A stretch of 64,000 nucleotides of DNA from an uncultured bacterium (GCA_963722655.1 CAVRNT010000002.1:7461-71460), one strand, 5' to 3'; positions 3,191 to 48,910 are shown, counted from the stretch's first letter. The notes: generated by a model not told the origin, from the sequence alone. Program-made: numbers and translations.

Positions 3191-4903
3191 ATGGCCAAGG
3201 AAGTTGACCTGATAAAGGAAAAATTGAATTTGGTTGATTTTCTGCGGTCCTACGTCACCCTCCTCCCCGCCGGCAAGAACTTGAAGGCGCTTTGCCCCTT
3301 CCATTCGGAAAAGACAGCGTCCTTTATGGTTTCGCCGGAACGGGGCGTTTGGCACTGCTTCGGCTGCGGATTGGGCGGCGACATCATCAAGTTCGCGATG
3401 CTCTACGAGCATCTGGAGTTCCCCGAGGCCCTGCGTTTCTTGGGCGAGAGGGCCGGCATTCCCATCCAGACTTTGAGCCCGGCCCAGCAGCGTGAGTTCG
3501 GCATCCTTTACGACCTCCAGAACGTCGCCAAGGATTTCTACAAGGAGGCTCTGCAAAAAAATCCGGGCGCCCTCCAGTACCTCAAAGCGCGGGGCCTCTC
3601 GGACGAAACGATCGATGAGTTTGATCTCGGTTACGCGGCGGGCGGCGAGACCCTCGTCCTCCATCTCTTGCATGAAGGATTCGATGTCTCGGACGTCGTC
3701 CGGGCTGGACTCGCCCAGAAGAACGTCCGCGGCCTCTACCGCGATAAGTTTTCCGGCCGAGTGATCTTCCCGATCGCGAACCAGGTGGGGAAGACCGTGG
3801 GCTTCACCGGCCGGCTATTGCCCGACGACCCCTCGGTCAAGAATGCCACCGTCGAGCTCCCCAAATACCTGAACTCGCCCGAGACGCCCATCTTCAATAA
3901 ATCCCGCGTCCTCTACGGTCTGGGAAAGACCAAGCAGGCGATCGCCGAGGCGCGGAGCGTCCTCATCGTCGAGGGCCAGATGGATTTTTTGATGGCCTGG
4001 CAAACGGGCGTGAAGAACATCGTCGCCGTTTCCGGCACCGGCCTCACGCCGCAGCACCTGGAACGTCTGCGGAGCCTGGCCGACACGGTTTTGGTCAGCT
4101 TCGACAACGACGAGGCGGGCCTCCGGGCGCTCGAAAGGAGTTTGGCCAATTTCCATAACTTCGATTTTCACGTGAAGGTCATCGACCTCGGTGAGTTCAA
4201 GGACCCGGCGGACGCGGTGCTCGCCGATCCGGTTTTCTTCAAACAGGCGGTTGAATGGGCGAGGCCCGCGATGAAGCACATCTTCGGCGTCTACTTTTCG
4301 CCGAAGGTCTGGAAGGAAGGGGACATCCCGCTCCAAAAGCGGATCTTACGCCACCTCTTGGGCGAGGTCGGCACCTTGAAGAGCGCCGTCGAACAGAACA
4401 TTTGGATCAAGGAGATGGCGAAGCTCTCCGGAATTTCCGAGAACGCCTTGAACGAAGAAATGGCGGAACTGGGCGGCAGTTCCGCGGGCGGCGGGGTGGA
4501 AGGCGAGACGGCCGCGGCGCCGGATTTGGACCGCCTCGGCGCGGTCGCGAAACGCCTCGTCGCCCTCGCTTTGACAAACGCGGAATTCCTCGCTAAATTA
4601 ATGGAGCATCAAGCGCTTCTCCCGGAAAATTACGTCGCCATCCTCGCCGATCCGCAAGCCGAGGGTTCGGCCTTTCTGGAGCTCCAAGGCGCTTATGAGT
4701 TCGGCGATCTGGACGAGGACAAGAAGCGCAAGGAGTTCGGCGACCTGATCCGCCGCCTGCAGTCCTTCGGTTTGAAGAAAGAATTGGCCGGCGTCAAGAA
4801 GGCGCTCAAATCACCCGAGGCGCGGGAGAACGAGGCGGAGACCGAAAAGCTCTTGAACCGTTTCTCGGACATCACGAAGAAGATGAACGACCTCAACCAA
4901 TAA
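3191..4903 (+). CDS. dnaG: DNA primase DnaG
   Basis: CHC2 zinc finger [11 protein letters not shown]...[16 protein letters not shown] region LIVEGQMD...DNDEAG; followed by rpoD as in the MMS operon. Confidence 0.92.
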
Positions 4904-7424: not shown

Positions 7425-8774
7425 TTGAAAAAGTTTTTCGTTTTCACGGCCTTTTTCATTTTCTTGAGTTCAACAATCGCGTCTTCGCAAACGCCGGTCA
7501 CTAGGGATTTCACGATCTCGGTGCAAAGCCGGGTCGTCCCTTCGAATTGGTGGATTTCGATCCCCATGTATATGTATGGAGATCCCGGCCGACCGATCGA
7601 AGGATTGGACGTCGTCATCAACTACCAGTTGCCGATCGAACATCAGTATGGTGAGTATATCGGGACATGGTCGTTTCCGAGTGACTGGTGGTGCACCGGC
7701 GGTTACGTCAGTCCGGCAGCGGACACCCTGAGGTTCGCCATGTTAGGCGAGCCGTTCAGCTTCAGTTCGGTATTTCTAGGATATTTCCCGGTATACGTTG
7801 GGGGTATCGCAGAGGGCCAGACGGTCCGACTGAACATTTCTGCGTACGTCGCGGAGAAGATAGCCGGGAGAGATACTCTCATCCAAGTCAGTTACAAGGG
7901 TGGCTATATTACCGGGTGTTCATCCGTGCTTGCGGGAGATGCGGACAACGATGGAGCATATTCGATCTTGGATCCTTTGCGGATTTTGGATATAGCGACC
8001 GGCCAATATGCTGCATCCATGATGGATTCGGTGCGTTGCGACGTCTCCGGTGACGGATACATTTCGTCGTACGACGCGTACGAGGTTTTGATGCGGGTTG
8101 TGTACCCATATTGGACCTTTGAGGTCCTTCAGGGTAACTACGGCGGAGCGAAAGGGAATACGGTGCCGGTACCCGGTACGGAAACGCCTATCTCGATACA
8201 ACTAACCGACGTCGAAGGCGGGGTCCAAGTATCACTTCCTGACAGCGTCAGCATAAATTGCGCTGACCTATCGTTCTCGAGCCCATTGACCATCGACAAG
8301 AACGTTTCTACGAACGGACTTTTCGCTTCGAGCGCGGATAGCAAGCGGATCAGCTTGATAGCGACAAGCGAAAAAATCAGCGGGAAGATCGGTTTCGTAT
8401 CAGGTGTAAGCGCTAAGGATTTGATAGTTACCGGAACGGTCGGCAACGGCACGAGGATAACGGTGGTGAAAAATATCGTTACATCAGTGTCGGACCACTC
8501 AACTGCGGTTAAAGACTTTTCTTTAGCCCAGAATTATCCCAATCCGTTCAATCCGACGACGATGATATCGTACAGCCTTCCAAAGGCAGGCAACGTCACG
8601 CTTAAGGTGTATGACATGCTTGGCCGGGAGGTGGCGGCACTGGTGAACGGAGTCGTCCCGGCAGGTCAGCACGAGGTTCAATTCGATGCTTCGTTCTTAC
8701 CGAGCGGCACATACCTGTATCGCTTAGAGGCAGGCAGTTTCACGAAAACACAGAAAATGCTGCTTCTGAAATAG
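7425..8774 (+). CDS. Secreted protein with dockerin-like Ca-binding repeats and T9SS-type (Por_Secre_tail-like) C-terminal sorting domain
   Basis: Signal peptide MKKFFVFTAFFIFLSSTIASSQ; paired D-x-D/N-x-DG segments DADNDGAYSILDPLRILD / DVSGDGYISSYDAYEVLMRVV; C-terminus SLAQNYPNPFNPTTMISYSLPKAGNVTLKVYDMLGREVA...GTYLYRLEAGSFTKTQKMLLLK typical of T9SS CTDs; region is low GC. Confidence 0.65.
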   Translation: MKKFFVFTAFFIFLSSTIASSQTPVTRDFTISVQSRVVPSNWWISIPMYMYGDPGRPIEGLDVVINYQLPIEHQYGEYIGTWSFPSDWWCTGGYVSPAADTLRFAMLGEPFSFSSVFLGYFPVYVGGIAEGQTVRLNISAYVAEKIAGRDTLIQVSYKGGYITGCSSVLAGDADNDGAYSILDPLRILDIATGQYAASMMDSVRCDVSGDGYISSYDAYEVLMRVVYPYWTFEVLQGNYGGAKGNTVPVPGTETPISIQLTDVEGGVQVSLPDSVSINCADLSFSSPLTIDKNVSTNGLFASSADSKRISLIATSEKISGKIGFVSGVSAKDLIVTGTVGNGTRITVVKNIVTSVSDHSTAVKDFSLAQNYPNPFNPTTMISYSLPKAGNVTLKVYDMLGREVAALVNGVVPAGQHEVQFDASFLPSGTYLYRLEAGSFTKTQKMLLLK

Positions 8775-35180: not shown

Positions 35181-36173
35181 ATGAAAGATAACTTCAAATA
35201 CATCATTATCTCTGTTATCTTGGCGGCGGCAACATTCATCTTGGGGTTTTACGTGAGCAAGGTGAATAGTGGGGCACAGAATGCCTATGTCGCTCCCGTA
35301 AACGGCGATAGTACCGAAGCGACACAAAATAATCTTATTAACCCATCTGTGACGATGAACATCGGGAAACATTTCATCATCAACTTCAAGCCGCTCAAAG
35401 ACCAGCTAACGGCGATACAGAAAGAATATGCTCAAAAAACGTACATTTATTTCGATTATCTCAATAATGCTTCCTGGATCGGCTTGAACGAGAGGGACAA
35501 CTTTACGGCCGCGAGCACCGTGAAGGTTCCGCTTGCCATGGTGCTTATGAAAGCCGTTGAAGACGGAAAGTTGAAATTGACCGATTCATATGCCCTGGAT
35601 GATTTGGATTTGGACAAGAATTTCGGGGATTTATACAAGGTTGGTGCCGACCAAGCATTTACTATAGAGGAATTGCTTAAGATAATGCTGGAACAATCGG
35701 ATAACACGGCGATGCATGGCATCGTTAATGTTTTCAATAAAATCGGGATTGACGACCCGCTAGCGGGTGTATACGATGCCATGGGATGGGGGATAGGTAC
35801 CCCGAATTTATTGCCAGATGTGGGACAAACCGTGGATTACGGTCAGATAAATCTTAAAATGTTATCCAATATGTTCATCGCCCTTTATAACGCAGATTAT
35901 GTGAACGTGGAGCATTCCCAACAAATCCTGAATTACCTAGATAACACGCCATTCAACGACAAAATAGAAGCCGGCGTTCCAGCAAACATTTCGGTTGCTC
36001 ATAAGATAGGAACATCCGTAGACAACGAAACCTTCGCGGATTGTGGTATCATCTACGCCCCAAGCCGTAATTATCTTCTATGTCTCGCCTCCAACGGTGG
36101 GAACGATAATGTCGCTTCAGAATTTATGGCTGAAATTTCCAAGGCAGTTTATAGCTACGTTATGAAAAATTAA
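35181..36173 (+). CDS. Membrane-anchored serine hydrolase of class-A beta-lactamase fold
   Basis: SxxK (STVK), SDN (EQSDNTAM), KTG-like (HKIGTS) motifs; N-terminal TM; low GC. Confidence 0.65.
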   Translation: MKDNFKYIIISVILAAATFILGFYVSKVNSGAQNAYVAPVNGDSTEATQNNLINPSVTMNIGKHFIINFKPLKDQLTAIQKEYAQKTYIYFDYLNNASWIGLNERDNFTAASTVKVPLAMVLMKAVEDGKLKLTDSYALDDLDLDKNFGDLYKVGADQAFTIEELLKIMLEQSDNTAMHGIVNVFNKIGIDDPLAGVYDAMGWGIGTPNLLPDVGQTVDYGQINLKMLSNMFIALYNADYVNVEHSQQILNYLDNTPFNDKIEAGVPANISVAHKIGTSVDNETFADCGIIYAPSRNYLLCLASNGGNDNVASEFMAEISKAVYSYVMKN

Positions 36174-36175
36174 AC

Positions 36176-36979
36176 ATGGAAGAAACACGGAAGATTAAAA
36201 TCGACGAACTGCTAGCCACCGCAAAGGCCAAAGAATGGGAAACACGAGTGCTTCAGGGTAATACCTACAAGAATTTTTCGACCATCATTGTCATTGCGAC
36301 CCGTGGCAAAGGCGTCACGAACGTTAAATGCCCGAAATGCGACCACCCGTTCGAAGTGGAACATTGGGTCGGCCTCCACCCGTGGATAGTGGAGTCGTGG
36401 AAACGATTCATCAAGCCGATGAACATTCCGGTGCAAGAAATAATGATTTCAGGGCACGAGGTAGGTCAAGCTTATGAGGAAGCAGTTCAGGTTATCCTTG
36501 AAACACCGCAGTTCAAAAATTATCGCTACATACTTTTTCTCGAGGATGATATTATCGTGCCATTCATAAACAATTCTTTCGGGCCGCTCATCGAGCTTTT
36601 CAAACATATGGAGAAGTTTGATGTCGCCTCGGCCCTATACTGGACTAAAGGCGAACCGTCTTTACCTCTCGTCTATGGCGACGGTAACATCAACGCGTCC
36701 AGTCCATTCGAGGTCAATACCAATTGGCAGCCCGGTCAGACCGTCGAGGTGAACGGTTGCGGCATGGGCTTCGCACTCATGAAGAAGAATATATTTGAGG
36801 ATCCGCACCTCGAAAGGCCGTTTTTTAAAACCGTAAGTGAGGTTAAAGACGGCCAATACAAGGGTTATACGCAGGACCTGTATTTTTACGAGAAGATAAA
36901 GAGATTGGGTTATAAGATATGTGTTGACACCGGCGTCCGCTGCGGCCACCTGGATTTTCAGAGTGAGGTGGTCTATTGA
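36176..36979 (+). CDS. GT2-like (GT-A fold) glycosyltransferase with N-terminal CxxC element
   Basis: DXD (YILFLEDDII), GT2 C-terminal signature NGCGMGFALMKKNIFED; CPKCDHPF near N-terminus. Confidence 0.55.
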   Translation: MEETRKIKIDELLATAKAKEWETRVLQGNTYKNFSTIIVIATRGKGVTNVKCPKCDHPFEVEHWVGLHPWIVESWKRFIKPMNIPVQEIMISGHEVGQAYEEAVQVILETPQFKNYRYILFLEDDIIVPFINNSFGPLIELFKHMEKFDVASALYWTKGEPSLPLVYGDGNINASSPFEVNTNWQPGQTVEVNGCGMGFALMKKNIFEDPHLERPFFKTVSEVKDGQYKGYTQDLYFYEKIKRLGYKICVDTGVRCGHLDFQSEVVY

Positions 36980-37872
36980 TCATGGAGAGAAACCAGTTCG
37001 ACGAATTATTGGAGAACGTTAAGCGCGTATATGGACCGTTTTATTCATACACTCTTAACTTTGAGAAGACTATTACCCCTAGGGAAGATCTAGGCGTATT
37101 TTTTAACCGCCTATTATACATCACGAACGATATGTTTCGGGATATTCCTATCAAAAAGATCAGAGTTCTAGATCTCGGCTCTTATGAAGGCATATATTCG
37201 GTGGGCTTTGCTCAACTAGGCGCAGAGGTGGTCTCGGTTGAAGGGAGGAGAATCAATTTCGCCAAGATGAAGGTGGCTAAAGAATATCTGGGCTTGCGGA
37301 AGCTCGATGTGGTTCAAGCTGATGTCCGAACCATCACGAGAGAAACATACGGTCGCTTTGACATCGTGCTTGCCTGCGGAATTATGTATCACCTGGATGC
37401 CCCTTCGGTTTTCGAAGTGTCCAAAAACATATCTGATATGGCCGAGCGCTTGGCTATTATCGACACACACATTTCTCTGTCCCGCCCGGTCAGCCATATC
37501 TACAAAGAAAGAGCTTATTGGGGTATGATTCATAAAGAATTCGACGCTGGTATCTCAACTCACGAAAAAGAATTATATCTCGCTAACGCACTAGATAATA
37601 ACGAGAGTTTTTGGCTGACGAAAATTTCCTGGTTAAATCTCCTGAAGAGTCTAGAGTTCAACACGGTTTATGAGTGTTTGGTACCCCAAGCGGAACGGGA
37701 AAAAAGATTATACGACAGAGCAACGCTTGTTGCAGTTAAAAATCTAAAATCTAAATCGTTCTTCCCGGTTTCTATTTCTCCGGACCCGCTATCAGAACAG
37801 ATCGGAGAGACGATATTCATTATGCAGGATAATCAACCCATTCCCAACGATAACGGAATAATTGTAAGATAA
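36976..37872 (+). CDS. Class I SAM-dependent methyltransferase
   Basis: Motif I VLDLGSYEG, acidic loop VVSVEGR, motif FDIVLACGIMYHL. Confidence 0.65.
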   Translation: MIMERNQFDELLENVKRVYGPFYSYTLNFEKTITPREDLGVFFNRLLYITNDMFRDIPIKKIRVLDLGSYEGIYSVGFAQLGAEVVSVEGRRINFAKMKVAKEYLGLRKLDVVQADVRTITRETYGRFDIVLACGIMYHLDAPSVFEVSKNISDMAERLAIIDTHISLSRPVSHIYKERAYWGMIHKEFDAGISTHEKELYLANALDNNESFWLTKISWLNLLKSLEFNTVYECLVPQAEREKRLYDRATLVAVKNLKSKSFFPVSISPDPLSEQIGETIFIMQDNQPIPNDNGIIVR

Positions 37873-37877
37873 AATCC

Positions 37878-38639
37878 GTGGTAGATGTTGTAATCCCAAC
37901 CAAAAAAACTTCACCTTTCTTCGATGCGAGCATCGATTCGTTAAAATACATCCCGTTCCCTTATAAATTACACCTCATTACTAAAGGTACTAGCTGGGCT
38001 GAGGCGATAAATATCGGCTTTGGGGAGAGCGAAAATGATGTGCTCATAATGGACGACGACACGATTCTGGAACCCGACACATTCAGGAATTTTAAACCAA
38101 TTGGGGACATAACCGGATTCAAATTAAGAGGCGGGGATGGGAAAATTAACCATGCCGGGAGCTATGTCGAAATTAGCGATTTCTCATATTGCAATGCTCC
38201 AGTCTCTCCATATTTTCCCGAAACACCGGATATCGTTATTAACTGCCATGCCGGATTTGGGCATCTCTCGGAAGATATAACCGAACCTATCGAGGTTCCT
38301 CATTGCACCGCCTCGCTGCTCTATATCAAGAAAAATGTCTGGCAAAAATTGCACGGTATAGCAACCGACTATCCGGGTTACCAGTACGAGGACGTGGATT
38401 TTTCTTTCCGGGCTCTGAAAGAAGGGTTCAAGATAGTTTGCCTGCCCAATGAAGCGATCCACCATTTGGGAGCAACTAAGGGCTCCGACCCGAATTTCCC
38501 TCAGAAAATGTCGGTCAATCTAAAAATTATCACTCGAAAATTTTTTAGTGACCCGGAATTTATAGGACTCCTTTACAAGAGAGGGCTTGTCAATGGGCAT
38601 TCATCAATCTTTACAAATTCAGATTTTCTGATAAAATAA
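37878..38639 (+). CDS. GT2-like glycosyltransferase
   Basis: N-terminal VVIPTKK, DXD in VLIMDDDTIL, GT-A spacing. Confidence 0.55.
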   Translation: MVDVVIPTKKTSPFFDASIDSLKYIPFPYKLHLITKGTSWAEAINIGFGESENDVLIMDDDTILEPDTFRNFKPIGDITGFKLRGGDGKINHAGSYVEISDFSYCNAPVSPYFPETPDIVINCHAGFGHLSEDITEPIEVPHCTASLLYIKKNVWQKLHGIATDYPGYQYEDVDFSFRALKEGFKIVCLPNEAIHHLGATKGSDPNFPQKMSVNLKIITRKFFSDPEFIGLLYKRGLVNGHSSIFTNSDFLIK

Positions 38640-38704
38640 TTACTTAATTAAGTTCTTTTAAAATTCACTTTCCCCGATAAACTCAGAAATGGAGGACAGC
38701 CGTC

Positions 38705-39706
38705 ATGGCAGAAGAGTTCTACAACAGGTTTAATTCCTTAAAGATCCTGATTTTTTCTGACAGGTTGCAGGAGATCGCTGTCGGCGGATTGCCGTACCCG
38801 TTGATCTGGCACATTTACCCGACCAATCACTGCCCCTTAGATTGCGATTTTTGTATCATGGCCGAGGAAAGGGAAAACAAGGTTTCCCTCCCCAGAGAGA
38901 TTCTTTTGAAGGCTATCCGGGATGCCGCCGAACACGCGAAAACCATACATTTTTCCGGAGGCGGGGAACCGACAGCTCACCCCGATCTTTTGGAAGCGAT
39001 CGAACTAGCTAAGAGATCCGGCTTGAAGGTGGCACTTTCGACCAACGGTGTTTCCCTGACCCAGAAAATATTTGATCTGGTAGATTTTCCGCGGGTCAGC
39101 TTGAACGCTGCTACAAAAGAGGTCTTCCGAAGCAATACCGGCACCGATCTTTGGGACAAAATCATCGAGAACATCAAAGATCTCAAGGGCAACAAGGGTA
39201 AATTAGGACTAGGATTCGTATTGACCCCGGAAAACCAAAGAGACCTTTACGGTTTTTGCAAGTTGGCGAACGACCTCGGCATTAGTTGGGTCCACATCCG
39301 GCCGGCTTTTCTAAAGAAAAGGAACGAAGAGGTCAGAGCCCTGATGCCCGAATCGACCAGGATCATCGATGGTGCTAAGGAGGATTTCCCCGACTTGGTG
39401 ATTCACTTCAAAACGGACAAATTCGACGGCTATTGGACGCCAAGGAGGTACGATAAGTGCCGGGCAACACCATTATTAGCGGTGCTGAAGGCGAACGGCA
39501 AATTCTGCGTTTGCCAAGACAGGGTCGACCTGGAATACGGCGATTATCGGAAACAATCCTTCGAGGAAATTTGGCGCTCAAAAGAACATCTGGAAATACT
39601 GAAGAGAATCAATCTCGAAGAATGTCCCAGATGTGTCGAGACGAAGAAGAACGAGTACATCCAAAAAATCTTCATAGAGGATGGATTTGTAAGAGATATT
39701 CTCTAG
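38705..39706 (+). CDS. Radical SAM enzyme with C-terminal Cys-rich (SPASM/twitch-like) region
   Basis: CPLDCDFC (Cx3Cx2C) at residues about 43-50, GGEP motif (FSGGGEPTAHPDL), C-terminal CVCQDR...ECPRC cysteines. Confidence 0.75.
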   Translation: MAEEFYNRFNSLKILIFSDRLQEIAVGGLPYPLIWHIYPTNHCPLDCDFCIMAEERENKVSLPREILLKAIRDAAEHAKTIHFSGGGEPTAHPDLLEAIELAKRSGLKVALSTNGVSLTQKIFDLVDFPRVSLNAATKEVFRSNTGTDLWDKIIENIKDLKGNKGKLGLGFVLTPENQRDLYGFCKLANDLGISWVHIRPAFLKKRNEEVRALMPESTRIIDGAKEDFPDLVIHFKTDKFDGYWTPRRYDKCRATPLLAVLKANGKFCVCQDRVDLEYGDYRKQSFEEIWRSKEHLEILKRINLEECPRCVETKKNEYIQKIFIEDGFVRDIL

Positions 39707-39721
39707 CATACGTAAGAATTA

Positions 39722-39756
39722 GCCTGTTCAGTTATGAAACTGAACAGGCGTTTTTT
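39722..39756 (+). terminator. Rho-independent terminator after the radical SAM gene
   Basis: GCCTGTTCAGTT-atga-AACTGAACAGGC 12-bp stem followed by TTTTTT. Confidence 0.65.
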
Positions 39757-39776
39757 AAAATAGGCCTCGCGCGCTG

Positions 39777-39785
39777 TGTTATAAT
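39777..39785 (+). promoter_or_regulatory. Candidate extended -10 promoter (TGtTATAAT) for downstream methyltransferase
   Basis: TGTTATAAT at 39777-39785; SD AAGAGGGA 8 nt before ATG 39810. Confidence 0.35.
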
Positions 39786-39809
39786 GCCATACGTAAGAGG
39801 GATGAAACC

Positions 39810-40319
39810 ATGAAACTGGATATCGGCTGTGGCCCAAATAGACAGAAAGGATTTAAGGGAACGGACGTCATTTCAGGACCTACCGTGGATTTTGTTTTGG
39901 ACCTGGAGAAATTTCCTTGGGAACCGTTCGCGGACAACTCCTGCGACGAAATCTACACGTCTCATTATGTGGAAAAAACGAAAGACCTCATTAAGTTTAT
40001 GGACGAAATGTGGCGCATCTGCACTCCGAACGCTAAAATTACGATAGTCGCCCCTTACTACACCTCGATCCGCGCCTTTCAGGATCCCATGGCGACCCGT
40101 TTGCTTTCCGAAGCCACGTGGCCATATTTCAATAAGGAATGGCGCACCGCAAACAAGCTCGATCACTACCCGATCAAGTCGGATTTTGCCATTGAAAAAA
40201 TAATGGTCTTTTTTAACCAGCCATGGGACAAGAAATCCGAGGAGGCAAGGGAGTTCGCTAAAACCCATTACTGGAACGTCGTCTCCGATATTCTCGTCGA
40301 GCTCAAAGCCGTAAAATGA
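39810..40319 (+). CDS. SAM-dependent methyltransferase (type 11-like, small)
   Basis: Motif I LDIGCGPN, acidic DVIS, SCDEIYTSHYVE motif. Confidence 0.65.
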   Translation: MKLDIGCGPNRQKGFKGTDVISGPTVDFVLDLEKFPWEPFADNSCDEIYTSHYVEKTKDLIKFMDEMWRICTPNAKITIVAPYYTSIRAFQDPMATRLLSEATWPYFNKEWRTANKLDHYPIKSDFAIEKIMVFFNQPWDKKSEEAREFAKTHYWNVVSDILVELKAVK

Positions 40320-40817: not shown

Positions 40818-41252
40818 ATGGCGGTAAGGAAGAACAATAAAAGAGTTTTCGTCATCCCGGCTGTCCTTGGCTGCTTAATTATCGCGGCCGCCTTCGTTTG
40901 GCTGAACCTCGAGCCAATAAAGCTCTATCTGGAATCCAACAACCCCTTGAGCGCTAACTGGGCCGCCATCCAGTTGAACGACGGCGAGATCCTTTACGGC
41001 CACCTCGCGGGCGTCACGGACGCGACGATCGGCCTGCGGGATGTCTATTCGCTCCAGAAGTTCACGCCGGCGGAGACTGTAAGCGTCGCGGCCACCTCGA
41101 CCGGCCTTGCTCTTTCCCAGACCCCGGATATCGTGCCACCCGCGAAGCTCATCCCGATCCAGATGTCCGGCGACCTCTTCATTGACCGCCATTCCGTGCT
41201 CTATTTCAGTTTCATTTCGCCCGACAACCCCGTCGTCCCGTATCTCCAATAA
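40818..41252 (+). CDS. Membrane-anchored hypothetical protein (144 aa)
   Basis: N-terminal TM VFVIPAVLGCLIIAAAFVWL. Confidence 0.4.
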   Translation: MAVRKNNKRVFVIPAVLGCLIIAAAFVWLNLEPIKLYLESNNPLSANWAAIQLNDGEILYGHLAGVTDATIGLRDVYSLQKFTPAETVSVAATSTGLALSQTPDIVPPAKLIPIQMSGDLFIDRHSVLYFSFISPDNPVVPYLQ

Positions 41253-41254: not shown

Positions 41255-42589
41255 ATGCTCAAGGGAGGGTCCGCTATCTCGCTGGCCGCTTTAATCCTCG
41301 CGCTCGCCGCCTTGCCGTCGGCGCGGGCTTTTAATTCTACATCGACCGATTTCTTCCTGCGCGGTGACGTCCAAAGCATCGGCGGGCGGACGACCTCCAC
41401 CGATTTCATTATCTTTAACAACGGTGCGGTGGATGCCCTGAATCTCGCGACCTCGACGGATTTCCAGCTCATCCCGGGCCTCATCCGCGCCCTTTTCCAG
41501 TCGCCCGCGCCGACCTACACGCTCATACATTATCATTTCCGTTTTGACAACGGCACGGAGCAGACGGCGAGTTCCGCGACGAATGGGATTGAAGATGTTG
41601 CCCTCACGAACTGGGCACAGAGCACGAGCACGCGACTCCGGGTGGAGATCTCGAACACCGGCGGGACCATCATCAACTACACCTCACAACAGTTCCGCAT
41701 CGAATACGGGCTCTTGAGTTCCTCCTGCGCGTCCTCGTCCTATTCCGCTGTAACGAGCACGGGCGCCTGGACGATGTTCAATTCGGGCAATTTGAACGAC
41801 GCCTCGGACACCACGAACATCGCGGTATCGACGGGCGGCGTTTTGGACACCAACCATACCTTCCTCACGCCGAACGGGGGAGTGCGAGATTCTTCGAACC
41901 AGACGGGCGCGCTTTCATTACCATTACCGAGCGATTCTTTCGCGGAACTGGAATACGACATCCAGGCGGTCGCGAGCTCTACCCCCGGCGCCACTTACTG
42001 TTTCCGGGTCACGAACGCCGGTAGCGCGACAAGCTTCGCTTATTCCCAATATCCCCAGATAACCTTGGTGGGCGGCGCCCAGTCCATCTCGCTCGTCATC
42101 TCCACAACGACCGTGAACTTGCCGGGCCTCGCTCCGGGGACGCCCATCACGGGAACCTCGACCGCGACGGTCACATTGACTGGCGGCACTCATGGCTACA
42201 GTTTGCAGATTCAAAGGAACTCGTCCACCTCCACGCTCTCGTCCTCCACCACTCCGTTCCCGGATTACGCCTCCTGGAATCCATCAAGCACCAACTGCAC
42301 ATCGGGAGAGGGGAACGCCACGACGACCCCCGGGAAGACATTTGCCCTCCGCGTTCAGCAGACGGGCACGACGGCGAACTACTGCTCTTTCTGGTGGGGA
42401 GCGAGCGACGCAAGCGGCACCGCCCTTTACGCCGGGGTGCCGACGAGCACCGTGACGATCGTTAACGCCACCTCAACGAACAACGGCACCTCCACCTCGA
42501 CCATTCTTTACCGGGCCGACGTGCCTTCAACCCAAAAAGCCACGAATTATACCGGATTAGTGACCATCACCGTCCTGGCCAACCCGTGA
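41255..42589 (+). CDS. Secreted Ser/Thr-rich protein with repeated TSTDF motifs and C-terminal domain paralogous to the next gene
   Basis: Signal peptide; three N-terminal (S/T)STDF(F/I/Q) repeats; C-terminal NSSTSTLSSSTTPFPDYASWN...FALRVQQTGTTANY...WWG...GVPT...TNYTG. Confidence 0.5.
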   Translation: MLKGGSAISLAALILALAALPSARAFNSTSTDFFLRGDVQSIGGRTTSTDFIIFNNGAVDALNLATSTDFQLIPGLIRALFQSPAPTYTLIHYHFRFDNGTEQTASSATNGIEDVALTNWAQSTSTRLRVEISNTGGTIINYTSQQFRIEYGLLSSSCASSSYSAVTSTGAWTMFNSGNLNDASDTTNIAVSTGGVLDTNHTFLTPNGGVRDSSNQTGALSLPLPSDSFAELEYDIQAVASSTPGATYCFRVTNAGSATSFAYSQYPQITLVGGAQSISLVISTTTVNLPGLAPGTPITGTSTATVTLTGGTHGYSLQIQRNSSTSTLSSSTTPFPDYASWNPSSTNCTSGEGNATTTPGKTFALRVQQTGTTANYCSFWWGASDASGTALYAGVPTSTVTIVNATSTNNGTSTSTILYRADVPSTQKATNYTGLVTITVLANP

Positions 42590-42626
42590 TATCCACAGCT
42601 ATAGTCAAAACCGGTATGTTATAATA

Positions 42627-43292
42627 GTGTCAATGAGGAAGGCAATAAAAACGCTCTCTTTCGAAGGTTATGTCGTGGCAATATCGGTCGCGGTCTTCAC
42701 GGCGGTGGCTCTTTTTGCCGCTATTCCATCGCTCGTACCCCAGGTTTTCGCGAGCACGTCCACGTCAACGGGCCAGACGATAAATTTGACGGTGAATCAG
42801 ACGATCACGCTCACCGTCCCGGCCGCGGTCAGCATGACGGCCCTCACGCCGGGCAACAACACGCCGAGTATCTCGACGACGACCGCGGTCGTTTCGACGA
42901 ACGCATCGAACGGCTGGAACTTGCAAATCAATCGCAATTCCTCTACCTCGACTCTTGCCTCGTCGACCATAAATTTCCCGGACTACACTTCCTGGAACGG
43001 GAGCAGTAATGCGGCTACATCTTCCGTCGTCGCACAGACCTTCGCCTTCCGCGTCTACCAGACCGGGACGACCGGAGGTATCTACAACACCACCTGGTGG
43101 GGGACGAACGACACGGACCCGAACGCTAAATTCGGCGGCGTGCCGACGGGTGCAACTACAATGGCGAGTACGAGCACCTACAGCGGTTCATCTCAAACCG
43201 TCGTCTTCGGTTTCCGGGCCGACGCACCGGCCACCCAAGCCGCCACGAACTACACCGGCAACATCACCGTGACCGCGATCGCCCTTCCGTAA
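42627..43292 (+). CDS. Secreted paralogue of the C-terminal domain of the preceding gene
   Basis: NSSTSTLASSTINFPDYTSWN...FAFRVYQTGTTGGIYNTTWWG...GVPT...ATNYTG collinear with 41255-42589 C-terminus. Confidence 0.5.
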   Translation: MSMRKAIKTLSFEGYVVAISVAVFTAVALFAAIPSLVPQVFASTSTSTGQTINLTVNQTITLTVPAAVSMTALTPGNNTPSISTTTAVVSTNASNGWNLQINRNSSTSTLASSTINFPDYTSWNGSSNAATSSVVAQTFAFRVYQTGTTGGIYNTTWWGTNDTDPNAKFGGVPTGATTMASTSTYSGSSQTVVFGFRADAPATQAATNYTGNITVTAIALP

Positions 43293-43332
43293 AGCGCTTG
43301 CCGGCCAAGGGCTGAGCTGTATAATAAGGGGG

Positions 43333-44238
43333 ATGGTCAATAAACGATTCAGATTTTTCTTCGCTATTACCGCCATTACGGTAATATTTTTATCTCCGGT
43401 CTTAGCCAACGCCCAGGTCGGGATCTCGCTCTTCCCAATCAAGTTCGATGTTACGGTCGCGCCGGGGCAGACCTACTCCGACACCGTTACCGTCATCAAC
43501 CCCAACGATTTCCCGATCGGCGTCCAGCCAGAGGTGGAGAACATCGCGGGCGGCAATCAGGGCTCCATCGACCTCGTTGACACAGACATCCCGCACGGCC
43601 TTTCGGCTTGGATCCAGATCGACCGAACCCAGTTCACCTTGGCCCCGCAGGAAAGACGACAGGTGTCGTTCTCTATCGTGGTCCCGGAAAACGGCGAGCC
43701 CGGAGGCCACTACGGCGCTATTCTCTTTAGAGGCGTAACGGTCGCGGGGAATCCCGCCGCGACCGGCGTCGGTATTTCCGGCCGAGTCGGTTCGGTGATC
43801 CTCGTGAACGTCCCAGGCGCCTCTTACGCCACCGGCAATTTGGCCGACTTCGCCGGTCCTAGTTCCTACGTCTCCCACGGCCCGGTGAACTTCTCCTTTA
43901 CCGTCAACAACACCGGCAACACCCATTTCAGCCCCCAAGGCCAAATCACATTGAACGGCCCCTTATTGGGGACCATCCAAATACCCTTTGATTCTGGCAT
44001 CATTTTCCCTGGTTACAACCGCGTTTTCACAGCCTCCTGGCCAAACCGGTACGGTTTCGGCCCGCTCACGGCTACCCTTTCGGTCCAGATCCCGGGGAGC
44101 GGGACAGTGACAAAAACGCTTCATTTCTTCATGTTCCCGTGGCAGGAAGCCTTCGGCATACTGGTAATTCTGCTCGTCCTGATCTTCTCCTTCCGGGGCG
44201 TCAAGAAGAACTTCCGGATAGTCCGCGTTCAGAGGTAA
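43333..44238 (+). CDS. Cell-surface protein, DUF916-like ectodomain with C-terminal TM anchor (DUF3324-like)
   Basis: Signal peptide, beta-rich domain, C-terminal WQEAFGILVILLVLIFSF + RGVKKNFR; architecture as in Firmicute WxL-locus DUF916 proteins. Confidence 0.45.
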   Translation: MVNKRFRFFFAITAITVIFLSPVLANAQVGISLFPIKFDVTVAPGQTYSDTVTVINPNDFPIGVQPEVENIAGGNQGSIDLVDTDIPHGLSAWIQIDRTQFTLAPQERRQVSFSIVVPENGEPGGHYGAILFRGVTVAGNPAATGVGISGRVGSVILVNVPGASYATGNLADFAGPSSYVSHGPVNFSFTVNNTGNTHFSPQGQITLNGPLLGTIQIPFDSGIIFPGYNRVFTASWPNRYGFGPLTATLSVQIPGSGTVTKTLHFFMFPWQEAFGILVILLVLIFSFRGVKKNFRIVRVQR

Positions 44239-44239
44239 C

Positions 44240-45439
44240 GTGAAAAATGTCATCTTCTGGTCAGCGCTCATCTCCTTAACGGCCTTTTGCCTGCCGGCGG
44301 CCGAAGCCCAGGTCATCCCGCCCGCGAGCGGCACGACCGCGGTCTCCATTACGGTCATCTTCCCACCGGCGGCTCCAAGCGATCTCTCGGCCTCGGCCAT
44401 CTCGAACTCGCAGATAAATTTGGCCTGGACGGACAACTCCAATAACGAAACCGGCTTCAGCATCGAGGAGGCGGTCGGCAACGATTCCATCTTCACGCCG
44501 ATCGATTCCGTCGGACCGAACGTCACGACCTATTCACGAACCGGGCTCCTCGCGAGCACGGACTATTTTTATCGAATTCGGGCCTATAACATTGCCGGTC
44601 CGAGCAACTACTCGAACGAGGCTTCGACGACAACGCCCGCCGCGCCCGTGACTCCTCCTCCGCCTCCGCCACCGACGGGTGGAGGCGGAGGAGGCGGAGG
44701 AAGTTATTCACCTTTGCCTAATGCCGGCACCGCGGTTAGTTTTGCCGGCCACGCGTTCCCCAAGACGCAGGTGACGCTTCTCAAGGATGCTCAGGTCGTC
44801 GCGAGCACCGTCGCGAGCGACGACGCGAGTTTTCAGATGTCCCTTTCCGGACTTTCCGCCGGCAACTACATCTTCTCGCTCTACGGCACTGATGCTTACG
44901 GCAACCGCTCCGCCCTCCGCACCTTCCCCTTGAGCGTTACGAGCGGGGCGAGCACCAACGTGAGCGGCATCTTCATCGCGCCCACGCTCACGACCGATAA
45001 GAGCACGGTGAAACAGGGAGACCCGATCACCTTCTTCGGTCAGACCGTCCCCGCTGGCGTCGTCACGATCGCCGTGAATTCAAGCGGCGGTTTTTACGTG
45101 ACGACGACTGCCGATCAATCAGGTGAATACCTCAAGGAATTCGACACGACCCCGTTGGATTTCGGTCAGCACACGGCCTATGCCCGCACATCCGCCATGA
45201 ACCTCGTGACGGACAACAGCAGCGTCATCGGCTTCAATGTCGGCACGACGAACGTCAAGAACAACCCCAAGGCCTCTAAGGGCGACCTGAACGGCGACAA
45301 CCGAGTGAACATCGTGGATTTCTCCATAATGGCCTACTGGTACGGCAAAAAGAATCCACCGAAGAGCATAGACATTGGCGGCTTCGGTGTCGTTGACCTT
45401 CGGGATTTCAGCATTCTCGCATACAATTGGACAGGCTAA
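44240..45439 (+). CDS. Secreted FN3-domain protein with poly-Pro/Gly linker, Ig-like domain and C-terminal dockerin
   Basis: FN3 (INLAWTDNSNNETGFSIEEA...STDYFYRIRAYNIAGPSNYSNEAS), PPPPPPPTGGGGGGGG linker, dockerin repeats DLNGDNRVNIVDFSIMAYWYG and DIGGFGVVDLRDFSILAYNW. Confidence 0.65.
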   Translation: MKNVIFWSALISLTAFCLPAAEAQVIPPASGTTAVSITVIFPPAAPSDLSASAISNSQINLAWTDNSNNETGFSIEEAVGNDSIFTPIDSVGPNVTTYSRTGLLASTDYFYRIRAYNIAGPSNYSNEASTTTPAAPVTPPPPPPPTGGGGGGGGSYSPLPNAGTAVSFAGHAFPKTQVTLLKDAQVVASTVASDDASFQMSLSGLSAGNYIFSLYGTDAYGNRSALRTFPLSVTSGASTNVSGIFIAPTLTTDKSTVKQGDPITFFGQTVPAGVVTIAVNSSGGFYVTTTADQSGEYLKEFDTTPLDFGQHTAYARTSAMNLVTDNSSVIGFNVGTTNVKNNPKASKGDLNGDNRVNIVDFSIMAYWYGKKNPPKSIDIGGFGVVDLRDFSILAYNWTG

Positions 45440-45443
45440 ATCA

Positions 45444-46355
45444 ATGAAGAAATACCTTTTAATGATAATCTTGTTCTCGCTGGCTTTGACCTCCAAAGCC
45501 GCCTCGTTAAGCTTAGAAACGCCGAACCCAATCGTTCCTCTGGGCACACCCTTTGCGGTGACCGTCTATTTGGACCCCCAAGGCCAGAGCGTGAACGCCT
45601 TGGAGGGTAACTTGACCTTTCCAAACGACAAACTCCAATTGGAGAACGTCTACGGCAGCGATTCCATCGTGAGCCTTTGGATCGAACGCCCGCATGAGGC
45701 GGTTTCCGGCACGATCGCCTGGAGCGGGATAATGCCCGGCGGTTTCGGCGGCGTATTGGAACCGAATGAGGCCCAACCCACTCCGGGCCAAGTGGCCGTC
45801 GCGGTCTTCAAGCCGCTCCAGATCGGAACCGCCACCATCGGTTTCGGAAATGTCTCGGTGCTCTTAAACGATGGTCGAGGGACGCCGGCCACCGTCACGA
45901 TGAGCACCCTCACCGTCTCCGTCGCTGCCTCAAGCTCGACGGCCGGAGCGGCCTTGCCTACCGCGCTCATCGGTGACAATGTTCCGCCGGAACCCTTCCA
46001 AATCAACCTAAGTCGTTCTCCCAACCTCTTTAATGACCAATGGTTCATCGCCTTCGTCGCCCACGACAAAGGGACAGGTGTTGCTTCCTACGACGTCTTG
46101 GAATCGAGAACGCCGGTCGTCGACTTCAGCAGTGCTGCCTGGCAACCGGTAATAAATCCGTATGTCTTAAAAGATCAATCTCTAGCGAGCTATGTTTACG
46201 TGAGAGCGACGGACTACGCCGGGAACTCCCGCCTCGCCTCTTTGCCGCCGACGCGCCAGAACGCATTGTCACCAGTCCTGACCTATCTGTTAGTTATAAT
46301 AATAGGAGCGGCATCTTTCATCCTATGGCTGACTTTAAGAAAGAGAAAAAACTGA
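45444..46355 (+). CDS. Cohesin-like domain protein with C-terminal TM anchor
   Basis: Signal peptide; GTPFAVTVYLDPQGQSVNALEGNLTFPNDKLQLENVYGSDSIV...GQVAVAVFKPLQIGTATIGFGNVSVLLNDGRG cohesin-type pattern; C-terminal VLTYLLVIIIGAASFILWL + RKRKN. Confidence 0.55.
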   Translation: MKKYLLMIILFSLALTSKAASLSLETPNPIVPLGTPFAVTVYLDPQGQSVNALEGNLTFPNDKLQLENVYGSDSIVSLWIERPHEAVSGTIAWSGIMPGGFGGVLEPNEAQPTPGQVAVAVFKPLQIGTATIGFGNVSVLLNDGRGTPATVTMSTLTVSVAASSSTAGAALPTALIGDNVPPEPFQINLSRSPNLFNDQWFIAFVAHDKGTGVASYDVLESRTPVVDFSSAAWQPVINPYVLKDQSLASYVYVRATDYAGNSRLASLPPTRQNALSPVLTYLLVIIIGAASFILWLTLRKRKN

Positions 46356-48079
46356 AATTCGTTTGCCTGACCGCCGTTGTCGCGGCGGTCTTCCTCGTCT
46401 TTCCGACGGCCCGGGCCGCCGGCGCCTCTTTCACCTTTTCGGCCCAGACCGGCTCTTATGAGGTCGGCGATGCTATCCCGATTACGGTCTATATCCAGAG
46501 TCCGGGTCAATCCATCAATGCCGTCTCCGGCGCGATCTCCTTCCCGAGTGACAAATTGGCGGTCACCTCCATATCGCAGAGCGGTTCCATCGTTAACCTC
46601 TGGGTTCAAAACCCGAGCTATTCCAACGGTGCCGGTACGGCTAACTTCCAAGGAGTGGTTCTGAATCCGGGTTTCGTTGGTTCCAACGGAACGATCATTA
46701 CCATCAATTTCAAGGCGATTGCCCCAGGCGTCGCTCTCGTTTCTTTCACTTCCGGTTCCATTCTCGCGAACGACGGCCAGGGCACGAACATCCTGGACCC
46801 GGACGGATTGCCTTCCGATCAATACGCCATCAACGTACTGGGAACGACTAGCAACGGTCTGACGAGCACTCCGAACAGCGCGAATGGACCGCTTGCGACC
46901 GTGATTTCATCACCGACCCATCCCGACCCGACGAAGTGGTATTCCGAGAACGATGCAAAGTTCGTTTGGACAGTCCCCGACGGCGTTGACGCCGTGCGCT
47001 TGCTCTACAACAAATACTCCAACTCGACACCGACCGTGCTCTACCAACCGCCGATCAGCGAAAAGGAACTCACGGGGCTAGACGACGGCGTCTGGTATTT
47101 CCACATCCAGTTCCATGACGCGAGTGGCTGGGGGAACATCGCCCATTTCAAATTCCAAGTAGACACGACGCCACCTAATCCGTTCCAAATCGGTTTCGTG
47201 TCCAGCGCCGATCCAACAGACCCACGACCGACTGCCATTTTGAATGCCACCGACGCGCTTTCTGGTATCGCTTATTACAAGATAAAGATTGATGACCAGA
47301 ATTTCATAACAGTTTCGGCCAGCCAAGCACAAAGCGGCCCCTATCAGCTACCAGTCCAAGCGAGCGGCGCCCACAACATTTTGGTCCAGGTCTTTGACCA
47401 AGCTGGCAATTATCAAACCGCTATCGGGCAGTTCACCGTCGCGCCGATCGATCCTCCGATGATTGTGAACTACACCACCCAATTCCGGTCCGGCGAGTAT
47501 CTGGTCGTCAAGGGCACGACCTACCCGAACGCCACCGTGACCGTCCACCTCGAAGGGAGCGGCGTTCTACCGAAGAGCTGGACGGGCGTAAGCGACAGCT
47601 CCGGTGCCTTTACGGTCACCGGTGACGGCGCGATCGACGCAGGCGCTTACAAGATGTACGCCACCGTGACCGACAGCCGGGGCGCTCAAAGCCCGCCGAC
47701 CCAGCAGTACGACGTTGCGGTCGCGCCGAGCACTTTCCTCGGCATCGGCAACTACGCCATCAGCTTAATCGCCATAGTGATCTCGCTCATCATCGTTCTG
47801 CTCGTAGTCGGGGCGTTCCTGCTCGGTCCCGGGCGGGTCCACGCAATCAGAAAAGGTGTGACCTTGGAGACGAAGACGGCCGAGCGCGACGTGGAACGCG
47901 CCTTCAACTCCTTGCGACAGGATATTAAGACCCACGTCCGCTTCTTGGAGAAGGTGAAATCGATGCGCGACCTGACGAAAGAGGAAGGAATGATCTTAAA
48001 GCAGCTCAAGGACGATCTGGAACGCTCGGAGAAGTCCATCGAGAGCGACCTCGAGAAGATCGAAAAACAGCTGAAATAA
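46325..48079 (+). CDS. Cohesin-like domain surface protein with Ig-like repeats, C-terminal TM and cytoplasmic coiled-coil tail
   Basis: Start ATG 46325 (MADFKKEKKLKFVCLTAVVAAVFLV); GDAIPITVYIQSPGQSINAVSGAISFPSDKLAVTSISQSGSIVNLW...GTIITINFKAIAPGVALVSFTSGSILANDGQG cohesin-like; TM ISLIAIVISLIIVLLVVGAFLL; charged coiled-coil C-terminus. Confidence 0.55.
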   Translation: MADFKKEKKLKFVCLTAVVAAVFLVFPTARAAGASFTFSAQTGSYEVGDAIPITVYIQSPGQSINAVSGAISFPSDKLAVTSISQSGSIVNLWVQNPSYSNGAGTANFQGVVLNPGFVGSNGTIITINFKAIAPGVALVSFTSGSILANDGQGTNILDPDGLPSDQYAINVLGTTSNGLTSTPNSANGPLATVISSPTHPDPTKWYSENDAKFVWTVPDGVDAVRLLYNKYSNSTPTVLYQPPISEKELTGLDDGVWYFHIQFHDASGWGNIAHFKFQVDTTPPNPFQIGFVSSADPTDPRPTAILNATDALSGIAYYKIKIDDQNFITVSASQAQSGPYQLPVQASGAHNILVQVFDQAGNYQTAIGQFTVAPIDPPMIVNYTTQFRSGEYLVVKGTTYPNATVTVHLEGSGVLPKSWTGVSDSSGAFTVTGDGAIDAGAYKMYATVTDSRGAQSPPTQQYDVAVAPSTFLGIGNYAISLIAIVISLIIVLLVVGAFLLGPGRVHAIRKGVTLETKTAERDVERAFNSLRQDIKTHVRFLEKVKSMRDLTKEEGMILKQLKDDLERSEKSIESDLEKIEKQLK

Positions 48080-48116: not shown

Positions 48117-48596
48117 ATGAAACATTTTAAATTTTTACCGTTCCTGACGGCCGAGGCGCACTGCGACGTGCCCTGCGGCATCTATGACCCGACGCCGGCG
48201 AAGATCGCCGCGAAGACCGTCGCCAGAATGGTCGACCAAATAGCGGACATCCATCCGCCGCAGGATTGGAACGACGCCGCGGCGGCTTCGGCTTACGTCC
48301 AAAGTATCGCCCGACGCGTGGCCGTGAAGGAGGAGCACGCCCAGATCTGTAAGAAGGAGCTTTCTGTTCTTTGGTCCGATTTCTTCAAGCCGGAGCATCT
48401 CGTGAAGTACCCGAACCTGCACAATTTGTTCTGGAAAGCGGCCAAACTCTGTTCCAAGGACAAGCAGACGATCAGCAAGGAGGATGCCGTCGCCCTCGTC
48501 GGCGCCGTGGATGAAATCGCCCGGGTCTTTTACGAAGTGAAGGGCGATCCGAAGAGATACGAGGCCTATAAGGAAATCACCGACAAGCTATACTAA
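48117..48596 (+). CDS. sodN: Nickel superoxide dismutase precursor
   Basis: 14-aa leader then Ni-hook HCDVPCGIYDP; LSVLWSDFFKPEHLVKYPNLHNL matches the NiSOD core (LDVLWSDYFKP...YPELH in Streptomyces). Confidence 0.88.
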   Translation: MKHFKFLPFLTAEAHCDVPCGIYDPTPAKIAAKTVARMVDQIADIHPPQDWNDAAAASAYVQSIARRVAVKEEHAQICKKELSVLWSDFFKPEHLVKYPNLHNLFWKAAKLCSKDKQTISKEDAVALVGAVDEIARVFYEVKGDPKRYEAYKEITDKLY

Positions 48597-48601: not shown

Positions 48602-48640
48602 GGAGGTTGAACCTCCCAGGAGGTTCAACCTCCTGATTTT
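48602..48640 (+). terminator. Strong hairpin (14-bp stem) between sodN and sodX; terminator/attenuator-like
   Basis: GGAGGTTGAACCTC-ccag-GAGGTTCAACCTCC then TGATTTTA directly abutting ATG 48641; stem contains the only GGAGG Shine-Dalgarno-like sequences. Confidence 0.45.
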
Positions 48641-48910
48641 ATGAGGCCGTTCATCTTCAAGGTTCAGGTCAGCGGCGAGAGCCTCTGGCCCGAACTCGTG
48701 CCCGGCCGCATCTACTGGGCGACCGGCCTTTTGGCCCCCAAAGCGGGGGATTATGCCGTCTTTCGAAGTCCCGACGAACCGGGTAAGTTCGTCGTGAAGA
48801 AGGTGAAAAGCGTCCAGGACGGGCTTTATGAGCTCGTCGGGACCGTTCCGTGGTCTTCGTCATACAAAGTGCCAAAAAGCCAGATTTTAGGCCGTCTTTT
48901 GGGCGTTTAG
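48641..48910 (+). CDS. sodX: Putative NiSOD maturation peptidase SodX (S26/S24-like)
   Basis: 89 aa, GESLWPEL (GDSM-like Ser motif) and downstream KKVK; placed by adjacency to sodN. Confidence 0.5.
   Translation: MRPFIFKVQVSGESLWPELVPGRIYWATGLLAPKAGDYAVFRSPDEPGKFVVKKVKSVQDGLYELVGTVPWSSSYKVPKSQILGRLLGV

Follow-up and report, generated by a model that had tools for sequence, protein, structure and literature searches.

What kind of cell-surface structure is encoded by the tightly packed genes between 40.8 and 48.1 kb of a 64,000-nucleotide stretch of DNA from an uncultured bacterium (GCA_963722655.1 CAVRNT010000002.1:7461-71460)? This whole stretch is called the window here, and all positions are counted from its first letter on one strand, 5′ to 3′. 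A preliminary description of the same DNA had reported a cohesin-dockerin cell-surface assembly locus of four genes at 43333-48079. All four genes (g4 to g7) were confirmed, on the + strand and with products that are secreted or anchored, but the locus had been cut too short, and the two preceding genes, g2 and g3 (41255-43292), also belong to it. We assign a probability of roughly 60% to the reading that 41255-48079 is one operon for a cell-envelope complex, typical of Patescibacteria, also called the candidate phyla radiation (CPR), and made of two non-covalent “plug-and-socket” modules: a WxLIP homologue (g4) with two pilin-like surface proteins (g2 and g3), and a dockerin protein (g5) with two membrane-anchored cohesin proteins (g6 and g7). 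Judged from its sequence, the complex is most likely a calcium-dependent, membrane-anchored surface structure, probably for attachment.

The block comprises seven + strand genes (g1 to g7) with intergenic gaps of 1-40 nucleotides or overlaps, and strong terminator-like hairpins were found only at 39722-39749 and 48602-48633, both outside it. Hydropathy analysis placed N-terminal signal peptides on all products of g2 to g7, and a C-terminal transmembrane (TM) helix followed by basic residues on those of g4, g6, and g7. For two genes the start had to be corrected relative to a mechanical list of open reading frames (ORFs): g6, listed as 45375-46355, starts at ATG 45444 (MKKYLL...), 4 nucleotides past the g5 stop, and g7, listed as 46040-48079, starts at ATG 46325 (MADFKK...), which leaves an overlap of 31 nucleotides between the two genes. 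A typical signal peptide follows directly after each of these ATG codons, and the corrected products of 303 and 584 amino acids are identical to publicly called proteins.

The dockerin protein g5 (44240-45439, 399 amino acids) is secreted and consists of a signal peptide, an FN3 domain (residues 45-130), a Pro/Gly linker (133-160), two Big_6-like Ig domains (approximately 162-336) and a type I dockerin at residues 347-399, which corresponds to nucleotides 45278-45436. Pfam matched fn3 with an E-value of 3e-9 and Big_6 as well; beside the dockerin, only FN3 and Ig domains were present, and no catalytic domain or carbohydrate-binding module (CBM) was found by Pfam or NCBIfam. Canonical dockerins are built from two tandem F-hand repeats of about 22 residues, each with a calcium loop of the type D-x-[ND]-x-[DN]-x6-D followed by a helix. 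Both repeats quoted in the preliminary description, DLNGDNRVNIVDF and DIGGFGVVDLRDF, are present at the end of the protein, the first fitting the F-hand consensus with a canonical loop (DLNGDNRVNIVD) and the second being degenerate. The consensus of the g5 family, KGDLNGDGRVNLVDFS...VDLNGDGKVDLVDFS, holds two canonical F-hand repeats, its last 52 residues reading KGDLNGDGRVNLVDFSIAAYWYKRPSPPxxVDLNGDGKVDLVDFSIMAYYWTG. Loop 1 is canonical in 162 and loop 2 in 131 of 181 family members, and the degenerate second loop is the minority state. A profile of the family matched solved type I dockerins, namely 2y3n_B (E = 2e-5), 2yik_A (3e-3), 5nrm_B (6e-3), 4fl4_A (7e-3) and CelS 1daq_A (2e-2), and PF00404 is precomputed on 83 of the best 120 g5 relatives. 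At E ≤ 1e-3, 878 relatives were found, with residues from approximately 164 to 399 kept at 53-58% identity. The conserved core is Ig-Ig-dockerin, with the dockerin module among the best-conserved parts and FN3 optional. In the family consensus the two repeats are nearly identical, which points to a dual binding mode or to the bridging of the two different cohesins; in the protein of the window, perhaps just one of them is still fully functional.

The two genes directly downstream encode the putative binding partners. The product of g6 (45444-46355, 303 amino acids) is a short membrane-anchored protein with a signal peptide, a cohesin domain at approximately residues 21-165 (nucleotides 45504-45938), an Ig-like domain (178-270), a TM helix (279-298) and the tail RKRKN. 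The longer product of g7 (46325-48079, 584 amino acids) carries a signal peptide, a cohesin domain at residues 34-170 (nucleotides 46424-46834), a disordered linker, an FN3-like domain (190-280), Big_13 (281-372), Big_6 (378-467), a TM helix (approximately 472-500), and a cytoplasmic α-helical tail of about 85 residues (approximately 500-584, nucleotides 47816-48076). The N-terminal domains of both proteins share 33% identity (E = 6e-17), and the second domain of g6 is common to both as well. Pfam Cohesin (PF00963) was found at E ≤ 0.01 in 25 of 51 g7 orthologues (best 4.5e-8) and in 5 of 26 g6 orthologues (best 1.5e-7), and a phmmer search with g7 itself gave a weak match to the ScaC cohesin 4uyp_A (E = 0.015). 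A template-free AlphaFold model of g7, computed from 50 orthologues, reached a predicted local distance difference test (pLDDT) score of 84.9 and contains a β-domain at residues 34-169, the disordered linker, three more β-domains, and the TM segment with long helices at 472-583; the first β-domain has the flattened β-sandwich fold of a cohesin, of about 140 residues. Its closest structural relatives are cellulosomal, at 12-19% identity to known cohesins. Because the orthologues match PF00963, the domains of g6 and g7 are homologous, g7 matches 4uyp_A and the model has the fold, the cohesin assignment is sound for g7 and, by homology, for g6. The cohesin domains proposed in the preliminary description were thus not placed in unrelated Ig-like families by profile searches, and hydropathy together with the AlphaFold model bears out the C-terminal TM tethers of both proteins and the cytoplasmic coiled-coil tail that had been described for g7. 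A search of the family profile against the PDB yielded only generic coiled coils as sequence echoes of this tail, such as ATP synthase b (E approximately 0.1). Segments of the g6 and g7 families at window positions 45870-45893 and 46763-46786 are a candidate partner-binding site.

The arrangement of these three genes is widely conserved. A scan for the g7 family, with one genome per species, showed relatives, and with them the dockerin-cohesin-cohesin triad, in at least 563 species genomes. The family falls into over 380 clusters with very little variation in length (about 580 amino acids), and its named members belong to Jorgensen-, Wildermuth-, Wolfe-, Falkow- and Magasanikbacteria and similar groups. 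Among the genome titles listed, most were from CPR/Patescibacteria groups or unclassified, and CPR predominated where a title names a lineage; a minority bore labels outside the CPR, “uncultured Gammaproteobacteria” and “Deferribacteres” among them, which are uncurated. This distribution fits the reduced-genome episymbiont that had been considered a probable source. The order of dockerin gene, short cohesin gene and long cohesin gene is kept across 80 fetched loci; of 82 loci searched by tblastn, 75 gave a match to g6 and 69 a match to g5, with gaps mostly at truncated contigs. When profiles were used for detection, the dockerin gene lay directly upstream of the cohesin genes in 64 of 66 informative loci, defined as those with at least 1.5 kb of DNA upstream of the first cohesin gene. 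Since the triad recurs in the same order at 64 of these 66 related loci, the organization of the locus is not due to chance. The triad is also the constant core of the locus; upstream of it, large secreted proteins and their small partners vary from one locus to another.

As the nearest structural relatives of the cohesin and the nearest sequence relatives of the dockerin are cellulosomal, the locus might encode a miniature cellulosome-like scaffold that displays polysaccharide-degrading enzymes. In favor of this explanation, Firmicute Csc/WxL clusters are reported to have been first proposed as carbohydrate-utilization complexes (PMC1534035). The comparison with cellulosomes, for which the Clostridium thermocellum OlpA/OlpC cohesins (3ul4, 4dh2), ScaC of A. 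cellulolyticus (4uyp) and the CipA-Xyn10B complex (1ohz) were used, nevertheless revealed marked differences. Cellulosomes are anchored by SLH domains or sortase, whereas a C-terminal TM helix is used here, and one of the two anchor proteins (g7) additionally carries the cytoplasmic helix of about 85 residues. The dockerin protein bears neither enzyme nor CBM, its conserved core being confined to Ig-Ig-dockerin; each cohesin protein has a single cohesin, hence there is no multi-cohesin scaffoldin; no dockerin-bearing enzyme is encoded in the 64-kb window; and the CPR bacteria that carry the locus show no sign of cellulolysis. Enzyme display, which had been offered as one possible function in the preliminary description, is unlikely because no catalytic domain accompanies the dockerin of g5 and the window holds no other clear dockerin; apart from g5, F-hands were found in the 64 kb only in the product of the ORF at 7425-8774. 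We therefore regard a cellulosome-like scaffold as highly improbable. Non-cellulosomal cohesin and dockerin modules, such as those of Archaeoglobus fulgidus (2xdh) and of the Clostridium perfringens GH33 and GH84 enzymes (2vo8, 2w1n, 2o4e), are in turn found on enzymes or soluble proteins, whereas here a dedicated syntenic set of three genes with membrane anchors is kept across a whole superphylum.

The first module begins to be recognizable at g4 (43333-44238, 301 amino acids), whose product consists of a signal peptide, a DUF916/PGBD Ig-like domain (residues 38-132), a second Ig-like domain (approximately 150-265), a TM helix (approximately 270-292) and a short basic tail. Residues 38-132 match Pfam WxLIP_PGBD/DUF916 (PF06030) with an E-value of 2.1e-8 and 34.7 bits, above the cut-off of 27.3, and 9 of 12 CPR family members match PF06030 at E ≤ 0.1. 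With a profile of the CPR family, the best PDB match was EfmWxLIP1 (9i25_C; E = 0.009), covering both domains (residues 26-257 of 9i25_C). An hhalign comparison of the family with eight genuine DUF916+DUF3324 proteins fetched from Firmicute plasmids gave a probability (Prob) of 96.7% and an E-value of 3e-10 over 246 columns (template 7-285 of 361); a Pfam DUF3324 match was not obtained for g4. The protein that had been described as DUF916-like is, on these matches, a true WxLIP (DUF916/DUF3324) homologue with both domains and the TM helix. Of 55 informative loci, 38 have a DUF916-like gene upstream of the dockerin gene, 33 of them in adjacent position.

In Firmicutes, WxL clusters are defined by a small WxL protein, a large WxL protein and a WxLIP protein, the latter having the architecture DUF916-DUF3324-TM (PMC10599100, PMC9772566), and WxL proteins have been reported to be more than 91% Firmicute. 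The two genes upstream of g4 show a corresponding pair. The “large” surface protein g2 (41255-42589, 444 amino acids) has a signal peptide, a variable N-terminal region (residues 26-270) with three xTSTDF repeats and a C-terminal pilin-like domain (approximately 271-444), and the “small” surface protein g3 (42627-43292, 221 amino acids) consists of a signal peptide and a pilin-like/WxL-like β-sandwich domain only. The C-terminal 173 residues of g2 share 47% identity with g3 (E = 6e-31). Neither protein has a Pfam or NCBIfam match, and profile searches of the family against the PDB returned nothing relevant. A profile of the g3 family collected 446 representative proteins; full-length matches end at the protein C-terminus, and among the 150 best representatives the proteins are either about 200-230 amino acids long (domain only) or 350-4200. 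After iteration, 19 CPR loci were found to contain exactly two such proteins, one large and one small, directly before the two-domain DUF916-like gene, which is followed by dockerin, cohesin and cohesin. The xTSTDF copies of g2 (STSTDF, TTSTDF and ATSTDF) are encoded near its N-terminus, at window positions 41330-41480. Elsewhere (L060, L061, L065, L074, and L079), giant proteins of 1400-2000 amino acids encoded upstream of the dockerin gene are rich in similar ATSTNLF/ATSTNLY repeats, and the xTSTDF/ATSTNL type may be a shared repeat of CPR surface proteins.

Among the closest known counterparts of this module are the WxL/Csc clusters of Lactobacillales and Bacillales. The order large - small - WxLIP of g2 to g4 is the same as in a genuine WxL cluster of E. 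faecalis, and, as in WxL clusters generally (PMC9772566), the small protein is the domain alone while the large one carries it at its C-terminus. The first W-x-L motif is kept in the g3 family as GWxLxV (W97 and L99 at ≥90%) and reads Y-S-L in g2. This motif and the C-terminus of g3, of the type Y-x-G-x-hydrophobic-T-x-T-A-x-x-x-P, lie in register with the two WxL motifs, although the second W-x-L of genuine WxL sequences is replaced by [IVLF]-T-A within ...YTGxITxTAIxNP. When the g3 family was compared by hhalign with seven genuine WxL proteins, the best local matches fell on both WxL motifs and a relaxed alignment was collinear from end to end. Unlike in WxL clusters, no LPXTG partner gene was found here, and the WxL-like cluster is joined to a cohesin-dockerin triad, which was the case in none of the eight Firmicute loci fetched. 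Homology of g2 and g3 to WxL proteins is unproven and a candidate only. The similarity seen is compatible with the published prediction that a hairpin strand of WxLIP completes the WxL sandwich.

It also fits another explanation, in which the operon is the assembly and anchoring system of a donor-strand-type surface fiber. Here, g3 would be the polymerizing subunit, g2 a two-domain tip adhesin with a variable head and a pilin domain, as in FimH and CfaE, g4 a membrane-tethered strand-donating chaperone or anchor, for which its two Ig-like domains would be suited, and the triad the membrane base. In structural comparison, the top matches to g3 are without exception subunits of donor-strand or strand-exchange filaments (CsuA/B, FimA, CfaB, SCPU CupE, CanX, TasA, and TLP-2), 7 of 59 family members scanned have a weak match to DUF4402, and the N-terminus of mature g3 (STSTSTGQTINLTVNQTITLTV) hardly varies, has alternating hydrophobic residues, and is largely non-strand in the monomer model. 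A fiber would also fit the two settings of the pilin-like domain, which makes up small proteins by itself and forms the C-terminus of large, variable ones. Against it stand the absence of any Pfam SCPU or TasA match at E ≤ 1 in the 59 family members, the fact that WxL proteins, which share the cluster architecture, are not known to polymerize, and that no physical link of the cohesin-dockerin triad to g2-g4 is apparent. Overall, this explanation appears unlikely.

Several observations weigh against the two-module reading itself. In the second module, g5 of the window remains below the cut-off of Pfam Dockerin_1 (PF00404; E = 6.8e-4, 20.2 bits compared with 22.9), and its second calcium loop (DIGGFGVVDLRD) lacks ligand positions 3 and 5. 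The g6 and g7 proteins of the window have no match at all to Pfam Cohesin, nor any cohesin match in NCBIfam, and the full-length profile of the g7 family retrieved no solved cohesin from the PDB at E ≤ 1. In the first module, Pfam WxL (PF13731) matched at E ≤ 1 neither g2 and g3 nor any of the 59 family members scanned, and the hhalign scores against the genuine WxL proteins (Prob 45%, E = 2e-4 for A2; 14%, 2e-3 for A4) were no better than those of the best negative controls (Prob 15-21%, E = 1e-3). Furthermore, no DUF916-like gene could be detected ahead of the dockerin gene in 17 of 55 loci, which shows that one module can occur without the other. Thirteen loci overall (L002/L034, L040, L044, L045, L050, L057, L061, L065, L074, L076, L077, and L079) encode a conserved, N-terminally anchored TM protein of about 130 amino acids upstream of the dockerin gene, and in most of them a gene for a giant repeat protein of 1400-2000 amino acids comes before it. 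This protein mostly replaces the WxLIP-like gene, the overlap of these 13 loci with the 17 being large but inexact; it carries the motif LIVLPxGExPTxATVxDP..LKDQPFF...KVLIY...KAILYDP..NKIVEVAP and could not be assigned to a family.

The upstream part varies in other ways as well. In another variant, a single-domain DUF916-like protein of about 200 amino acids follows a protein of about 175, with the large protein further upstream in most cases. Longer DUF916-like proteins of 384-453 amino acids are encoded in L006, L020, L062, and L063. The one of these scanned with Pfam (L006, 384 amino acids) contains a LysM domain (E = 9e-8) past the TM helix; should the C-terminus be cytoplasmic, this would be an odd place for a module that binds peptidoglycan.

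The divergence of the domains in the second module leads to the question whether they are partners of each other. The cohesin-like domains could serve as spacers or bind peptidoglycan, an S-layer, host envelope glycans or other dockerins, and the dockerin could be a calcium-stabilized module with another partner. The partly degenerate dockerin of the window and cohesins too divergent for Pfam would agree with this, as would the third cohesin paralogue encoded in a few loci (L002, L039, and L050); many non-cellulosomal cohesin and dockerin modules are not known to have a partner, which also counts for it. However, the adjacency of dockerin and cohesin genes is nearly obligatory (64 of 66 loci), the dockerin module belongs to the best-conserved stretches of g5, and g5 is the sole clear dockerin in the 64-kb window. 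We consider it distinctly unlikely that these domains are not mutual partners.

Under the preferred two-module reading, g6 and g7 would be inserted as type I membrane proteins with their cohesins exposed N-terminally, held off the membrane by one Ig-like spacer in g6 and by three in g7. After export by Sec, g5 would dock via its calcium-binding type I dockerin onto one or both cohesins, and in this way fix its Ig/FN3 stalk at the surface of the cell. Through its cytoplasmic helix, g7 might serve the oligomerization of the complex or its coupling to the cell interior. By analogy with Firmicute WxL clusters, β-strand complementation would let g4 bind g3 and g2 through their C-terminal pilin-like domains, and g2 held in this manner would show its variable N-terminal part outward. 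The likely role of such a complex would be adhesion to a host cell or surface, adhesion being the most plausible role because of the episymbiotic lifestyle of the group. A more far-reaching possibility is that the six genes g2-g7 form one undescribed, Patescibacteria-wide surface appendage, in which a membrane base of two cohesin proteins, one extending into the cytoplasm by a coiled coil, is locked to the dockerin stalk protein and carries or organizes a strand-complemented WxL/pilin-like assembly; its large, fast-evolving subunit, thousands of residues long in some relatives, would be the adhesin by which these episymbionts recognize their hosts. This idea is tentative and appears rather unlikely.

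Cohesin-dockerin pairs, non-cellulosomal ones included, and WxL/WxLIP clusters are already known, and NCBI names a few members of the families discussed here “cohesin domain-containing” or “dockerin type I domain-containing”. In the literature searched, there was no paper on this operon, on a cohesin-dockerin or WxL system of CPR bacteria or on its CPR-wide conservation, and none on membrane-anchored cohesins with a cytoplasmic tail or on WxLIP homologues in CPR bacteria. Two possible connections to earlier reports were rejected. SEML1_0315, a “dockerin” protein reported as essential in Southlakia (Cell 2023), is a stand-alone, Ig-rich protein of 927 amino acids and does not correspond to this triad, and the terms “cohesin” and “dockerin” were not found in the supplements of that study that were searched. 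Among the “PGBD” proteins with high expression in cultured Paceibacteria (mBio 2024), a single one could be traced, and this protein has 692 amino acids and is not WxLIP-like.

Attachment to and recognition of the host are a central question for CPR/Patescibacteria, for which the known candidates are mainly type IV pili. The operon is a second, very widespread and testable candidate for the surface biology of these bacteria, combining variable large secreted proteins with a constant, membrane-anchored cohesin-dockerin core that was seen in no fewer than 563 species genomes. If the proposed complex exists, cohesin-dockerin biology would extend to a membrane-anchored, non-enzymatic architecture, and WxLIP/WxL display would reach well beyond the Firmicutes, from which it is so far almost exclusively known. 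Even if the pieces do not interact, “hypothetical proteins” of CPR bacteria gain a domain-level annotation. A general link of the locus to type IV pili was not supported, with type IV pilus genes lying downstream only in L002, L034 (on the same contig as L002) and L050. In these loci, a complete set (PilM, PilB, PilT, PilC, pilins, and prepilin peptidase) begins after one reverse-strand gene past the g7 orthologue.

A second dockerin-like protein, noted earlier at 7425-8774 (+ strand), is secreted, 449 amino acids long, and carries an internal dockerin-like F-hand pair and a C-terminal sorting domain of the type IX secretion system (T9SS). Two F-hand-like loops (DADNDGAYSILD and DVSGDGYISSYD) are indeed present, with a Dockerin_1 match below the cut-off (E = 0.0034, 18 bits), and the ORF encodes the only F-hand-repeat protein beside g5 in the 64 kb. 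Its clear feature is the T9SS sorting domain, Por_Secre_tail, which was matched by Pfam with an E-value of 2e-10 and by NCBIfam with 7e-13. As an operon partner it was discarded, as it matched neither the CPR-specific dockerin profile nor the cohesin profile; the dockerin likeness is weak, no link to the operon could be detected, and we treat the protein as unrelated to the dockerin/cohesin system. The gene lies in a stretch of lower G+C content (0.51 compared with about 0.57). A T9SS sorting signal is unexpected for a lineage thought to have no outer membrane and may have been acquired horizontally or be used differently.

Directly in front of the operon, 2 nucleotides upstream of g2, g1 (40818-41252, +) encodes a small, N-terminally anchored protein of 144 amino acids with a single TM helix (residues 7-34) and no Pfam or NCBIfam match. 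Homologues were found in only three other loci, each time upstream of the dockerin gene and at most three genes away from it, and g1 may be part of the operon. On the other side, g7 is directly followed by a gene for nickel superoxide dismutase, sodN (48117-48596, +; E = 8e-46). Between it and a small gene at 48641-48910 (+), whose product has a sub-threshold match to the maturation protease of this enzyme (E = 8e-5), lies the hairpin at 48602-48633, which has a perfect stem of 14 bp. The pair of sodN and protease-like gene adjoins g7 here and in the closest relative, L003, and not in other loci. Upstream of the surface operon, an island of low G+C content (approximately 36176-40319, +; 0.445-0.456 compared with about 0.57) contains two methyltransferase-like genes, a GT2-like glycosyltransferase gene, a radical SAM/SPASM protein gene (38705-39706) and a further methyltransferase-like gene, and is flanked on its other side by a class-A β-lactamase-like gene (35181-36173). 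The island looks like an insertion, because in L002 the β-lactamase-like gene is only two genes away from the dockerin gene.

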